A stretch of 64,000 nt of DNA from Eledone cirrhosa (Eukaryota): contig OZ024760.1 of the NCBI GenBank assembly GCA_964016885.1, forward strand, positions 10,230,001 to 10,294,000, in the 5' to 3' direction. Made by a program: the position numbers and the translations under genes. This document shows, in pieces, positions 6,541 to 59,460 of the stretch. The notes beneath the pieces are model-generated. The model saw only the letters and a list, made by a program, of their open reading frames with translations, had not been told where the DNA came from and made no database searches. Positions within the stretch are counted from its first letter, which is position 1. Every line of letters begins with the position of its first letter.

Positions 6541-7649
6541 TATATGATATATACACACACACAGAGGAAGGTATACCCACTCTGCACCTTTCAATGCATT
6601 GAGTACTCCCATGGTTTGTGGTCTACCACCGCAGGCTATCTATATACATACATATAAATATTTATATACACACACCTATATATACAAACACACATATATA
6701 CACACACACATACACTATGCACGCACCAAATGACGTGTGCCTACGAGATGAAATGAAGGGGGTAGATGGTGGTTAACGTATGTTAATATCAAAAAGATAA
6801 TAACCAAAGATGGGGACAAAAGAGGTCAGTCTGGAAGAGAAAGGGAAGAGGAGAGGTATCAATTAAAGGTGTGATAGGGACAGGTAGTTGAGAAAGGAAA
6901 AGAGGGAAGAAAGAGGTAGAAATCTGTATGTGAAAGAGAGAGAGATGGCGCGCAATTATCAGCCACCACAGATTGGTTTAAATTCGCGGCAACGACCAAC
7001 TATGCCCTACACCCTCTCCCCCAAGCAAAACAACCACCTTTTTCGATACACTTGGGTTGAAACACATACAGCCATCTCTTACACAGACAATGTTTTTGTT
7101 AAGGATAGCATTCCACAAAAAAATTATAGACGGGATATTTTTCAAACCTGTGTTTTTTATCCCCCCCAAGAGTCCCTAGGGTTTTGTTTTGTTTTATTTG
7201 TGGAGTTTCAAAAGGGGATGGCGAACGAGGATCGAACGAGATACCAACACTATTTTCTCATCTTGTTGAATGCTTGCTTCATTATCGAATCATTAACCAA
7301 GTAAAAAAAAAATCAACGTACACATAAATTACATATGATAATGTCACATGTAATTATGGCTGGACACAACACTCGTGTTTTATAGACACACGTAGACATA
7401 CATCCATATATTCACACAGACAATGTACTAATAGATTTGTACATACATTGAACACAAGGATATACATACATACATTACATTACATTACATTTTAAGAAAA
7501 ATGCGCAAGACAAATTTGTAATATATTAGATATGCGACTTGATGCCGGTATAATATACGCATTATCAATCATATGCTCACACACACACATATATATATGT
7601 ATGTATATATATATGTGTGTGTGTGTGTGTGTGTGTATGTGCGCATATA

Positions 7650-8108
7650 GTATATTAAACGGGGAATAGAATCGGCAACTATTTAAATGAGCAAATTTGA
7701 TGTTAGTCCTAGATATACAAGCTATCTGAATGAATGATGGATAAATAAAACGATGGTTACGATTGAAACACCTTTGATCAGTTTAACCCAGGATAAACAA
7801 TAAGGAGATTTTAAAACTTATCAACAAAGGTGCAGAGATGTAGGGGTGACCACACCATTCATATATACATACAAGTTTGTCTCGTTGATGGTAAATCACA
7901 AAAAGAGTGTAAATGTGGAAAGGAACATTAGGAGTTTTGTATTAATTAAAGATGTGTGTATCGATATGATGTTGAACTGACGAACTGCGGAGATAATTTC
8001 CCCAGTGAAACATGCGGAGTATTCGATCGATGAATTTCACCACATTTTCTACATTACAACTATTCCCTGTGACCAAGTGTTTGGTCCAACTTTGGGTAAA
8101 CCTTTTAT
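7650..8108 (+). mobile_element. Penelope-like element 3' remnant (decayed ORF end, HHR, tail)
   Basis: Decayed reading YIKRGIESATI*MSKFDVSP loosely resembles the GIY-YIG C-terminal R..IES..I..N motif; followed by the HHR at 7971. Confidence 0.45.
7971..8027 (+). ncRNA. Type I hammerhead ribozyme
   Basis: gttgaa-CTGACGA-actg(cgga..ttcc)ccagt-GAAA-c(atgcgga)g-TA-ttcgat. Stem I is 6 bp (2 G-U), stem II pairs, stem III is minimal. Confidence 0.75.
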
Positions 8109-8117
8109 AACGAAATT

Positions 8118-8230
8118 AACTGATTTCTTACAAATGAAACAATTCTAGTCCCTGTAGAAGTAATTTCTATAATTGAGTACCTTTATTGGCAGTGGTCGCC
8201 TCTCGCCGATTGTCATCGGGATCCTACATT
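8118..8230 (+). mobile_element. HHR-element family B fragment (3' half of HHR plus tail)
   Basis: tgatttcttacaaatGAAAcaattctagtccctgTAgaag is homologous to 14713-14756 and 43597-43650(-); ends in (TA)n. Confidence 0.65.
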
Positions 8231-8819
8231 TTATTTATATATATATATATATATATATATATATATATATATGATAAGTACTGACGGTTGTGTTAAGAGA
8301 GATGAGGGGATGGATGGGTCAATTATTTCTTCTCCTTCGCCATATCTTGGTTGTCGATAGTTTTTCATCACAGCCTCCTCGGCTTTTTTTTTTTTTTTTT
8401 TTTTTTAATAGATTCATGTTTTTTTTAATAGATTCATGTTTTTTTTATTTTTCTTTGTTTGTCATTTGTCCACCATGGAAACGATTTTTACGGCGACGCA
8501 AATAAAATAAAATCTATTAAAATATCAACAACGCTAAAAATAACAGCCCTGTCTATATATATATATATATATATATATATATATCTAAAATCACGCACAC
8601 CCTTTAATGTAATCCAAGGTACACTGTGGAAAATAACAACAATGAAATAGTTTAACAACTGGGAATGTCTCATTCAGACACGAACAGCAACAATATTAAA
8701 AAGAGGAACGTGCAGGCGCTGAGTTCGATTCCCAGTACACACACACACACACACACACACACATATATATATATGTGTGTATATATATATATATATATAT
8801 AGAGAGAGAGAGAGAGAGA

Positions 8820-8970
8820 GGAGCTGAGAAGTTCGTAGGTTAACTATGATAGAGTGATGCTAGAACTGCGCAACTTTTCTTTCCAGGGACTAATGTTGAA
8901 AAATAAACCCCATTTGGTCATTCCATGAGAGTATCTTGATCACCCTTTGAACTTTTCATCCGACCCTCAT
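8820..8970 (-). mobile_element. Mariner-like MITE
   Basis: TIR gagggtcggatgaaaagttca on the minus strand; same family as 13563-13814, 13230-13345 and 34517-34697. Confidence 0.7.
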
Positions 8971-10772
8971 GTGTGTGTGTGTGTGTGTGTGTGTGTGTAT
9001 ACATACACACAAACAAAATAGATGTTTGAAAAACGGAATAGTTGGGTTTTAATGGGGAAAAAAAAAAATAAAGATTGGTTCGGAAGAGAGAGATGAGGCG
9101 GAGAATGGTGAAGAAGGTTGTTTTTAGATCCCAATTTATCTCCGATAAAGACAAACGTTGCAGTTGTTTTATATAGATATATTTTCACCATTAAATAGAT
9201 ATATTTAAACGTCTCCTTTTTTTTTTTTTTACGAGGCAGTAAGGTTATATTAAAGAGATCTGACTGCTGTGTTTAGCAGATTCAACATCCATTGAAGAAG
9301 AATAGCTATTTCTTCTACCACCTCGTTGGTTCGGGACACAAAACAAAGCCGCCAAAAAAAAAAATTAAAAGATTTTAAAAAATAATTGCATTAGGGATGA
9401 CAATATATATATAAATATATAAATATATAAATGAAAAGTATAGAAATTATTGTAGCAAGAAGCCAACAGTATTCCATAATATATAAATATATATATATAT
9501 ATAATAATTTCAGACAACGAATTATTAAAACCCTGCATCAAAAGCTATAAACCAGAGGCGTTCTAGCCATGTCCTTTTATTTTGTGTGAATAAATATATA
9601 ACGTTGTGTATATATTTATATATATTTATTTATTAATATTTATACTTAAATATGAAAATGTTTATAGGGAGCAATAACAAGTTAGGGTTTACAAATGTCG
9701 TCAAAACGAAAGGGTTTGGGTGGAGGGACGGAAATAAGGCGCTAAATAATGTGGGAACAGCAACAACAGAATTGAAGGGACACAGAGGTGTGTATATGTA
9801 CATATATGTGTCTGTCCCTCTCACACACACACATATATATATATATATATATGGGACAGGAATAAGGCGTTAAAATCTGTGGGAACAGCAACAACAAAAA
9901 TGGGTTATCCTAGGAGAGACAGAGGGGAATGGATATATATATATATATATATATATATACCTATATCCCTCAATTATAAATATATGTCAGTGTAGGAAGC
10001 TAGGGGATGAATAGCAACGAAATCGAAATAGTTAAAGGGATAAAATGGCAGGACCTCGTGGTGGAGGAGGGGGTAAAACAGGGCGCCAAAATGTAGGACA
10101 GAGAGATGGCAGGGCAGCGGAGTCAAGGATATATTATTATAAGCAGAGATCAATTACATATGCAATATATAATATATATGCATATACATATATATACACA
10201 TATATATATATATATTACATATATATATATGTATAAATATATATATATATATGTATATATATATATATATATATATATATACATATATATATATTTCGTT
10301 TCTGAATTTGTTTAGCAAGATTCTTTATCTGAAAACGTGTGTTGAAACCGATATTGTTATACTTTGGGAGGGTCATGTTGCCTATATATATATATATATA
10401 TATATAAATATATATAAATGTGTGTGTGTGTGTGTGTACTAAGAGTGAGAAATGAAATTTCGTTTCATTTTTTCCATTTATATATATATATATAGAGAGA
10501 GAGAGATTACAATAATCAAAGTTCAGTTTAAATCATTGTAAGCAAATAAATGATTTAAACTGAACTTTGATTATTGTAATCTCTATAACTCATTACATTG
10601 AGCTATTTATCTTACTGGTAATCAGTCAGATAGTAATGAATGACTATCTTTCACTATTTGGGGTTTGTATAAAAAAAGATATATAACCATAAAAGGTTTT
10701 ATTATATACATAACCATAAATAGTATCCTTAATACTATATATATATATATATATATATATATATATATATAT

Positions 10773-10885
10773 AATTTTTTCTATTTTTAGGCACAAGGCC
10801 AAAAATTACCCAGTGTATTACTGGTACTTTTATTTTATCGACCCCGTAAGGATGAAAGGCAAAGTTAACCTCGGCGGGATTTGAA
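10773..10885 (-). mobile_element. SINE family 1 (Nin/Deu-like core), partial
   Basis: Reverse complement of aactttgcctttcatccttacggggtcgataaaataaagtaccag. Confidence 0.85.
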
Positions 10886-58068: not shown

Positions 58069-58081
58069 ATATAGATATAAT

Positions 58082-58420
58082 GGAGGCACATGGCTTAGTG
58101 GTTAGAGCATTGGCCTTGCAATCGAAAGGTTGTGAGTTCAATTCTCAGACCGGGTGATGTGTTGTGTCCTTGAGCAAGACACTTTATTTCACATTGCTCC
58201 AGTTTACTCAGCTGTAGAAATGAGATGATAGGACTGGGGTCCCTATCATTCCACTGCAAAGTGGTCGTGGAGGTGCCATGGCAAAAAAGCATCCAGCACT
58301 CACTGTAAATGAGGTTGGTGTTAGGAAGGGCATCCAGCTGTAGAAATCAAGCCAGAATCAGTTCCCGTCCCACCCTTCCAAGCAGGGAAAAGCGGACGTA
58401 AAATGATGATGATGATGATG
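58082..58420 (+). mobile_element. Full-length SINE2
   Basis: Matches 49477-49820. Confidence 0.9.
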
Positions 58421-58513
58421 ATATATATATGATTCAAAATGTTAACAAATGAAAAATATTCGCATACTGGAATTGAATAATCAAGACCGTAGCGGTATGT
58501 CATATATCAAATC

Positions 58514-58582
58514 ATATATTTTATCTGATGAGGACGTACTGAAACAACACAGTACCTTTGAAATATATATAATAAAGTATAT
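58514..58582 (+). ncRNA. Type I hammerhead (family A; element 58431-58725)
   Basis: atatattttat-CTGATGA-ggacgtactg aaacaaca cagtaccttt-GAAA-tatata-TA-ataaagtatat. Confidence 0.8.
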
Positions 58583-58954
58583 ATTTTGATTATGAGAATA
58601 TTTTTCATTTGTTAACATTTTGAATAATATTAAAAACTCCAGGAAAACTCACCGTTGAGTGCTTCTAATCTATTGTAAAATTGTATTCATTGAGTAATCA
58701 ATCAACCATATTAATCTTTGGTTATATATATCATCATCATCATCATCGTTTAACGTCCATCTTCCACGCTTGCATGGGTCTGGATATATATATATATAAT
58801 GAAATATATATATAATGAAATATCGTTTCATTTTTTCCGTTTATCGTTTTCGGTGCACCCGGCCGATTAACCCACTCGATATGCAAATTGGGCTACTCAG
58901 CTGTTAATATGCATAAGGTAAGTATATACGTTCAACAATCTGGCAGGAAGGTAT

Positions 58955-58997
58955 ACGTTGCTGACGATAGCTAACAAGCTTGAAACTAGTACAGCGT
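58955..58997 (+). ncRNA. Minimal type I hammerhead
   Basis: acgttg-CTGACGA-tagct aaca agctt-GAAA-ctag-TA-cagcgt; palindromic stem III ACTAGT. Confidence 0.82.
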
Positions 58998-59347
58998 TCC
59001 TTTGTCAGTGTTGAACAAACGAGCAACGGTGGTTGCTAGACACTACGGCTTAATACGGGATGTTTCTTTACAAACACACCGAGCATTATAATAAATGTTC
59101 GGTGAATCCATACGTGCATATATATATGTGTGCATGTATGTATATATATATATACATACTACTGTACGTCGGTATACATATATGTATGTACGTGTACATA
59201 CTTATATTTAAGTAACAGCCATACTAAGAGTGGGAAATGAAATATCGTTTCATTTTTTCCGTATATATATATATATATATATATAGTTAAATATTAGACA
59301 GGAACAAAAAATAGAGAGGCAGTACAAATGGATATATATATATATAT

Positions 59348-59460
59348 AGGAAAAAGTATGACCCCGACGGCAGAGCTCAAGCCGTTTTGGGGTCATACTT
59401 TTTCCTATTACCCACTCTACTATTCTAAGTATTGAATACTCTGGTGCGTTATGGTCCATC
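59348..59460 (+). mobile_element. Family D short fold-back copy
   Basis: aggaaaaagtatgacccc / ggggtcatactttttcct arms followed by the tail. Confidence 0.8.

Follow-up and report, generated by a model that had tools for sequence, protein, structure and literature searches.

Why do repeat islands that look unrelated to one another carry the same short signal near their ends, and what does that signal do? The question arises in a 64,000-nucleotide (nt) stretch of the Eledone cirrhosa genome (contig OZ024760.1, positions 10,230,001 to 10,294,000), referred to here as the window. An earlier note, made from the letters alone, had described GAGTAC-N11/12-TGGT and looser variants as a 3'-terminal signal shared by otherwise unrelated hammerhead-bearing elements in (TA)n. 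The islands are 5'-truncated, folded-back ends of Penelope-like elements (PLEs) of the Hydra clade, lying in (TA)n. Their conserved core is a bulged hairpin, RCTC-(variable stem-loop)-T[T/C/A]-GAGY-AC, which occurs twice at the junction between the pseudo-long terminal repeat (pLTR) and the open reading frame (ORF): once after the hammerhead (M1) and once before the ATG (M2). Because new insertions stop 5 to 9 bases before either motif copy, we lean toward a model in which the motif tells the reverse transcriptase (RT) where to start copying, with two docking hairpins setting two start sites. PLE ends, hammerheads, fold-backs, the tail, and the existence of two start sites have all been described before, but the hairpin in two copies, each at a set distance from one of the sites, is a real and apparently undescribed cis-element.

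Hydra-clade elements as carriers of the motif

The strict pattern, GAGTAC-N11/12-TGGT, occurs nine times in the window against 0.37 expected, a count reached by none of 100 shuffles. The positions first given (6601, 8175, 12708, 14794, and 50033) are correct, as are the hairpins drawn at 6579, 14779, and 50013; further matches lie at 20735(-), 33373(-), and 48674(-), together with a chance match at 925(-). Across the 3.0-Gb genome, TTGAGTAC-N11/12-TGGT was found 80,576 times (40,166 + 40,410), compared to 1,265 (623 + 642) for the reversed control. Five of the nine strict window matches, plus one mutated copy, belong to a single repeat family, termed A here (12708, 50033, 48674, 33373, 20735, and 59425; identity of 76 to 94%). 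The remaining sites fall into families B (14794), D (6601), E (10600), G (15154), F (58657 and 59617), and K (33810), and the match at 8175 is a relative of the family B copy at 14794 whose 5' arm is gone by deletion.

A tandem copy of family B continues from the motif into an ORF, which in intact copies encodes 713 amino acids (aa), and family A was recovered as tandemly arrayed 3,543-bp units with an ORF of 719 aa. The layout is a single ORF with the RT followed by a C-terminal GIY-YIG endonuclease (EN), and many of 150 scored EN matches lie within long open frames. The marks reported for the Hydra clade are an RWK motif, DKT in place of DKG, a CxCX5C linker, and CxxC and CxH in the EN (PMC8557442). 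The A and B proteins carry RWR, SDKT, CxCX5C, and, in the C-terminal GIY-YIG-type domain, CxxC and CxH, and both families are therefore assigned to this clade. Only one cysteine lies between the IY/VY and YIG parts of their EN, as read from the A and B proteins. These families show a preference for (TA)n targets as well as a pLTR, an inverted copy, and a tail on one side, and 5'-truncated, folded-back ends in (TA)n are usual for PLEs (PMC8557442). Hydra elements are "generally" shorter than 3 kb (PMC8557442); the family A unit exceeds this length, and family B has a 3' untranslated region (UTR) of >1 kb, mostly (TA)/(TG) microsatellite (loci L089 to L117, 3' of the ORF). As many intact-ORF copies of family B are 96 to 100% identical, this family has been recently active.

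To sample relatives, protein alignment was used to fetch 79 related loci from marine metagenomes, which are 35 to 45% identical to B and form 59 families. On a quick tree that left out the family C ORF and the named Hydra reference proteins, A and B are sisters (49% aa identity) that fall within a set of 42 marine relatives, well apart from an ORF of the Neptune type. Hydra-like ORF matches adjoin copies of families G and F. No ORF link was found among 30 loci of family D, although a relative of this family (locus L367) retains M1, M2, and ORF remnants. The carriers are thus not unrelated islands, as had been supposed, but related families, and every ORF-linked carrier is a Hydra-like PLE. Neither are they a single recently diverged family: deeply diverged families share the motif (A versus B, and the marine relatives).

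By pattern, type I hammerhead cores with stems I and III occur in families B, F, and H and in most marine loci, and families A and D have UUGA.AA cores, a U3-A8 covariant of C3-G8 (L366, on the minus strand upstream of M1; L375; L390; and L367). Family A is thereby a high-copy family on a variant core, and its hammerhead has a long stem II. At the Rfam gathering cut-off, no hammerhead was found in the window.

Other kinds of element were considered and rejected. The palindromes had suggested Helitron, Replitron, parvovirus-type, or other DNA-transposon termini, which were dropped because the islands ran into RT-EN ORFs; a search of viral contigs returned no relatives. A Naiad PLE is ruled out by the C-terminal EN and the hammerheads, given that Naiad elements have an N-terminal EN, a CxC motif, and no canonical hammerhead. 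Neptune PLEs (CX2-5CxxC linker, CCHH EN) do occur in this genome, where they were found with PF01541, but they are separate elements without the motif.

A duplicated, covarying hairpin

In the marine flanks, the hammerhead is followed after 45 to 60 nt by GCTC-(stem-loop)-T[T/C/A]-GAGC-ACT (M1) and then by M2 shortly before the ATG. Among the 43 marine Hydra-like loci with 120 nt upstream of the ORF, at least one motif copy lies within those 120 nt in 33, and two copies do in 20. The corresponding figure for shuffled sequences is 2.1%, and the motif was found in 1/43 ORF interiors, on 6/43 reverse strands, and in 0/30 Neptune-type 3' regions; the motif is thus enriched upstream of the ORF. M1 and M2 are spaced 57 to 83 nt apart, arm to arm, in the 20 families with both, and M2 precedes the ATG by 9 to 46 nt. 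The G-C form also abounds in the E. cirrhosa genome (19,107 matches versus 439 for the control), and family A combines ACTC/GAGT in M1 with GCTC/GAGC in M2. Three published consensus sequences from a coral and a sea cucumber contain the hairpin as well (Hydra-2_Amil, Hydra-1_Ajap, twice, and Hydra-2_Ajap), and the inspected ends of Hydra-1_Obim showed no canonical hairpin. TGGT, which had been taken as part of the core, is a local feature and is excluded from it: TGG[T/A] follows only 9/85 foreign instances, at scattered offsets.

Several side observations concern the spread of the motif. The 3' region of a Naiad consensus (PMC8557442, supplement) reads GCTC..TT-GAGT-AC followed by TGGT, which may be chance or the motif beyond the Hydra clade. 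Two noncoding tandem families carry the hairpin, with units of ∼570 bp (L432 to L435, in which no canonical hammerhead was seen) and ∼625 bp (L457 and L458); both are likely nonautonomous partners of Hydra elements. A satellite of ∼58-bp units derives from the hairpin region of family A (G000:C1:14235091-14252893, L340 to L359).

Covariation was gauged on 41 nonredundant instances picked regardless of their inner stem, with several false picks kept. Inner pairs 1 to 3 are Watson-Crick in 33/39, 25/35, and 18/29 instances, respectively, compared to shuffled means of 17.1, 10.7, and 7.3 and maxima of 27, 21, and 16; in 5,000 shuffles, the observed values were never reached. In the model-fitted alignment, started from a same-length seed, 95.6% of cells pair, versus 20 to 56% for slid partners; pair counts on a fitted alignment lean toward structure, and the 41-instance count is the unbiased one. 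The outer pair is G-C, A-T, or T-A, with TCTC/GAGA in both motif copies of loci L149 and L174, and the first inner pair is C-G in 41 cases, U-A in 18, and U-G in none. M1 and M2 share the side of the bulge, the 3' flank, and concerted substitutions. The proposal of a structured cis-element tied to element ends is supported.

The motif also appears not to be a described family, as the earlier note had suspected: Rfam has no match over the hairpin, returning a single tRNA-like match for the whole window at the gathering cut-off and nothing overlapping the motif at six loci with E values up to 1. A model built from foreign loci alone and scored on the window ranked four family A copies at the top (E values of 0.0005 to 0.009); families D, B, and F have E values of only 0.3 to 6, among chance matches.

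Beyond the hairpins, the stretch 3' of M1 tends to pair with the stretch 3' of M2 (cognate −11.6 versus noncognate −8.2 kcal/mol in 28 families). The mean z-score of this predicted helix is −1.58 in 27 families, versus +0.23 for the control, with values below −2 in only 7/27. In families A and B, TGGT probably forms the 5' strand of this longer helix, which would pair 3' of M2. Two U-G/U-A changes in the helix between family A subfamilies, read by eye, fit the sense strand.

Insertion ends and the start-site model

Insertions end at two sites, X just 5' of M1 and Y just 5' of M2. End positions were taken from the first 30 copies per family, picked by a hammerhead-region pattern and not by the motif. 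In family A, 16 copies end at X, just before M1, and 14 at Y, beyond M1 (one of them 13 nt early); family H likewise gave 16 X and 14 Y ends. Of the claim that the motif lies a few tens of nucleotides before (TA)n, about half of the ends bear it out, and the other half stop right before the motif. Y adjoins M2 on its 5' side in tandem junctions, the only places where the second motif copy was seen; M2 is absent from nearly all inserted copies. As such, the motif is not a 3'-terminal signal within the element, since the ends are set 5' of the hairpin and the second copy lies outside the inserted end. The distance from junction to 5' arm is 5 to 9 nt at eight sites in seven families. In family A it is 8 nt at X and 6 nt at Y; at X it is 6 nt in both B and H, 5 nt in C, and 7 nt in D; it is 7 nt at Y in G and 9 nt in J. 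Some read-through counts rest on single copies, and 39/154 rows for site X of family A are neither clean ends nor exact read-throughs. On foreign contigs, 8/11 informative ends fall 0 to 8 nt before an arm. Nearly all end sites start with TA.

Fold-backs from the hammerhead-anchored searches combine one X and one Y arm in 20/20 cases in family A and 14/14 in family H (including two duplicates); one additional row with two Y arms was dropped, as its arms came from two different insertions. Given one X and one Y end in 34/34 fold-backs, the X-Y stretch is the optional "tail" of PLEs. The Y arm lies on either side. The same asymmetry is visible in the window, where each of nine two-armed insertions has one long and one short arm. 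The features concerned are as follows.

6579..6607, +: M1 hairpin of family D, ACTC-TGCA..TGCA-TT-GAGT-AC; the copy begins ∼7 nt before the arm and is essentially tail only
8121..8232, +: family B relative; hammerhead decayed, M1 reduced to its 3' half by deletion of the 5' arm, then tail and (TA)n
10514..10660, +: family E fold-back; M1 represented by its 3' half (10598-10605), this copy having lost the 5' arm by deletion
12562..12760, +: family A fold-back; arm ends at X (left) and Y (right), with M1 (12688-12714) on the right arm
14578..14626, -: end of nonautonomous family J, stopping 9 nt short of its motif and so motif-free; second copy at ∼9430-9478
14648..14845, +: family B fold-back; arm ends at X (left) and Y (right), with M1 (14779-14800) on the right arm
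14860..15205, +: family G 3' end; hammerhead-like core from 14866 with long stem II; ends at Y
15140-15160, +: M1 variant of family G, ATTC..TT-GAGT-TC, inside 14860..15205
15230..15400, -: family F relative, ending ahead of M1
20685..20810, -: family A relative; M1 variant at 20729-20756
20866..21063, +: family H fold-back with its hammerhead core at 20977-21014, a right arm stopping at X, and, to the left, a decayed tail in inverted orientation
33322..33514, -: family A fold-back; M1 33367-33393(-); one X end, one Y end
33770..33900, -: family K 3' end; decayed M1 33810-33833
48623..48843, -: family A fold-back; M1 48668-48694(-); one X end, one Y end
49932..50084, +: family A fold-back; left X end, M1 50013-50039, right Y end
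58430..58725, +: family F; hammerhead core 58525-58544, M1 58636-58663, Y end
59349..59462, +: family A fold-back; left X end, mutated M1 from 59414, right arm ending early within the tail
59550..59998, -: family F fold-back; M1 59610-59645(-); hammerhead cores 59760(-) and 59889(+); one long and one short arm

The looser sites proposed earlier fared unevenly. The motif is present at 58657, but the pairing actca ccgt tgagt at 58647 is wrong, the family pairing being ACTC-CAG...CTG-TT-GAGT from 58636. At 10600, other copies of the family read GCTC-TGTAA..TTACA-TT-GAGC, the 5' arm being deleted in this one, and 33810(-) is a decayed copy from a true carrier family (ACTC-TGC..GCA-TT-GAGT-GC). The motif is absent at 14620(-), where it sits just past the end of the family J copy; 19350(-) has no hairpin and matched just two other repeat copies. 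Family J is a noncoding, hammerhead-bearing unit of ∼625 bp, in which 23/25 loci stop before the motif, the two read-through copies alone contain it, and no tail-bearing ends occur among the 25 loci. Two further observations concern these families: the hammerhead-like core of family G (14866-15005) has CTGAAGA and GAAA flanking a stem II region of ∼120 nt, with stem I apparently intact, and family D copies, unlike the other families, pass first into (CT)n and then into (TA)n, at either end site (L373 to L402).

In the start-site model, the hairpin in the element RNA would serve as a docking site that places the RT on a UA-containing start 5 to 9 nt upstream. A read-through RNA across a tandem junction would bind two protein subunits, one per hairpin, and the GIY-YIG EN would nick both strands of the (TA)n target. 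One 3'-OH would then prime at Y, so that M1 and the spacer are copied as the tail, and the other at X, with M1 and the spacer omitted. Head-to-head joining of the two cDNAs at their stopping points would leave an inverted repeat in which just one side bears a tail; a start-site role would explain the one-sided PLE tail. The long helix 3' of M1 and M2 may present site Y and M2 as a loop. Independent work on the Poseidon PLE is consistent with this scheme: in vitro, its RT starts at two internal RNA sites bounding the tail and extends both strands, the reaction depends on RNA lying 3' of the first start, and a dimeric protein is predicted (PMC11167929). A more specific version, which we put forward tentatively and somewhat below even chances, is that a structured RNA module of ∼130 nt, made up of two identical bulged hairpins and the long helix around the second of them, loads a dimeric RT related to telomerase at the two internal starts measured here, so that both target strands are primed from one RNA.

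A number of observations weigh against the start-site model or against RNA as the active form. The motif is absent by pattern at 10/43 marine loci, family B ends sharply at Y while lacking a canonical M2, and 3/11 informative foreign ends lie elsewhere than before an arm. Among the motif-selected loci, one (L436) is a true fold-back with two Y arms, and in some copies the 5' junction falls at X (L432 and the tail-only copies of family D). Because L149 and L174 are sisters, as are A and B, the outer-pair changes amount to about two events on the quick tree rather than many, the inner pairs having changed often. There is no G-U excess in the hairpin (0 embedded G-U in 45 stems; 4 G-U versus 5 A-C among closing pairs), and sense and antisense folds are alike for both the hairpin and the long helix. 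Pairing probability of the lower stem exceeds 0.5 in only 14 (M1) and 13 (M2) of 24 junctions, folds of the window copies have weak z-scores, and the cognate stretch is the best long-helix partner in only 4/28 families, with A and B alone not significant. The strand on which the motif acts is accordingly unproven, the two U-G changes in family A being all that speaks for RNA at the sequence level.

The strongest rival, which we regard as less likely, reads the hairpin as DNA: the GIY-YIG EN would bind it in single-stranded or extruded cDNA and cut at a distance of 5 to 9 nt. One cut would be made at M1 and the other at M2, each on a different strand of a fold-back intermediate, leaving the tail on one side. 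Strict Watson-Crick covariation without G-U and the 5' junctions at X agree with this, and the tail has been attributed to EN resolution (PMC8557442). Cleavage of plasmid DNA by the Drosophila virilis EN depended on the tail (as cited in PMC11167929), and GIY-YIG Ssn nucleases recognize single-stranded DNA (ssDNA) hairpins with an oriented flank (PMC11893778). Yet the Poseidon enzyme starts on RNA at the tail boundaries in vitro (PMC11167929), the two U-G changes in the long helix fit sense RNA, and, with M2 missing from nearly all inserted copies, the cDNA would routinely have to start beyond M2.

Improbable, in our judgment, is a mixed course in which M2 sets a single RNA start at Y and the cDNA snaps back, copies itself, and stops at the M1 hairpin, at X. 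Such a course would also yield one X and one Y per fold-back; the motif is near-palindromic and folds on either strand, and self-priming of PLEs has been proposed (PMC3846280). However, the shared bulge side, 3' flank, and concerted substitutions of M1 and M2 suggest the same reading on the same strand, and family J ends before its motif with no tail-bearing ends; the occurrence of the Y arm on either side does not discriminate. Least probable of all is that the motif serves another purpose (translation start, promoter, splicing, or packaging) and that ends cluster by pairing of UA-rich sequence with the (TA)n target. The proximity of M2 to an ATG and the TA at nearly all end sites are what this account would lead one to expect, but AT-rich pLTRs hold many TA steps, of which two at a fixed arm distance are used; noncoding families retain the motif; and most families have GC in place of the GT that might form a splice donor.

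The window holds other features besides. A 363-bp inverted repeat at 52340-53072 (96% complementary, 7-nt loop) is not TA-flanked, unlike the PLE fold-backs. A further TA-flanked fold-back family, in which the motif was not seen (48365-48568 and 18555-18690), is probably a different PLE family. A separate hammerhead-like core (7977, within 7960-8110; stem II ACTG/CAGT) lies directly upstream of the family B relative. Heads of tRNA-derived short interspersed elements occur at 49483-49546, 51820-51900, and 58085-58170, one of which reaches the Rfam tRNA cut-off. Tandem arrays occupy 1-1208 (111 bp), 25770-27389 (36 bp), 28183-29489 (104 bp), and 31910-32460 (∼60 bp), the last deriving from a 3' region resembling that of long interspersed elements, also present near 24700-24830.

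Significance and relation to known systems

Template choice and the one-sided tail of PLEs have been puzzling since the tail was described, and one in vitro study placed both starts without finding what signals them. The motif described here is short, duplicated, and covarying and keeps a fixed distance from both ends, which brings the question within reach of four or five point mutants. It also provides a boundary marker for annotating Hydra elements and their noncoding derivatives (∼100,000 pattern matches in the genome). If the ∼130-nt module is real, it would be the first defined template-positioning element of a PLE and the cause of the tail, as well as a portable signal for copying any RNA into (TA)n. 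By description, the motif can be likened to the R2 3' UTR and to the template-positioning elements of telomerase RNA, in which a structured RNA binds the RT and fixes the start of copying. R2 starts at the 3' end of its RNA with the signal 5' of the start, whereas the signal here is 3' of an internal start and is duplicated. Because the RTs of PLEs are the sister group of telomerase RT, the motif bears on the origin of template positioning by RNA structure.

No description of the motif was found in the literature searched, including the available parts of PMC8557442, PMC11167929, PMC3846280, PMC4209133, PMC7229834, PMC6765202, PMC5737381, and a retrozyme preprint; figures, Repbase or Dfam notes, and subscription papers could mention it. 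Among known systems, the C-terminal EN-containing (EN+) PLEs of the Hydra clade (Craig et al. 2021, PMC8557442) share the single RT and GIY-YIG ORF, the clade motifs, the pLTR, the hammerhead, the inverted 5'-truncated copies, and the (TA)n targets. They differ in that the available text makes no mention of a hairpin ("stem-loop" has 0 occurrences) and in that tails there measure 30 to 40 bp, versus ∼57 to 83 nt arm to arm here. Non-LTR retrozymes (PMC7229834; bioRxiv 10.64898/2026.07.22.740005) are likewise noncoding tandem units derived from PLE ends, and family J has a hammerhead core; the units here, of ∼570 to 625 bp, bear a hairpin that the retrozyme accounts, as available to us, do not describe. 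The Ssn/NTS ssDNA hairpin nucleases (PMC11893778) also pair a GIY-YIG enzyme with a short, oriented hairpin signal, but they are bacterial, single-domain proteins without an RT, and DNA activity has been shown for them. A mechanistic parallel is Poseidon of Anolis (Frangieh et al. 2024, PMC11167929), with two start/end sites around an optional tail, AT-rich targets, extension of both strands, and a signal partly 3' of the start. In Poseidon, the start lies in an AC-rich stem-loop within the ORF, and the available text defines no conserved or duplicated motif; in the Hydra-like elements, by contrast, each site is followed on its 3' side by a covarying hairpin located in the UTR.

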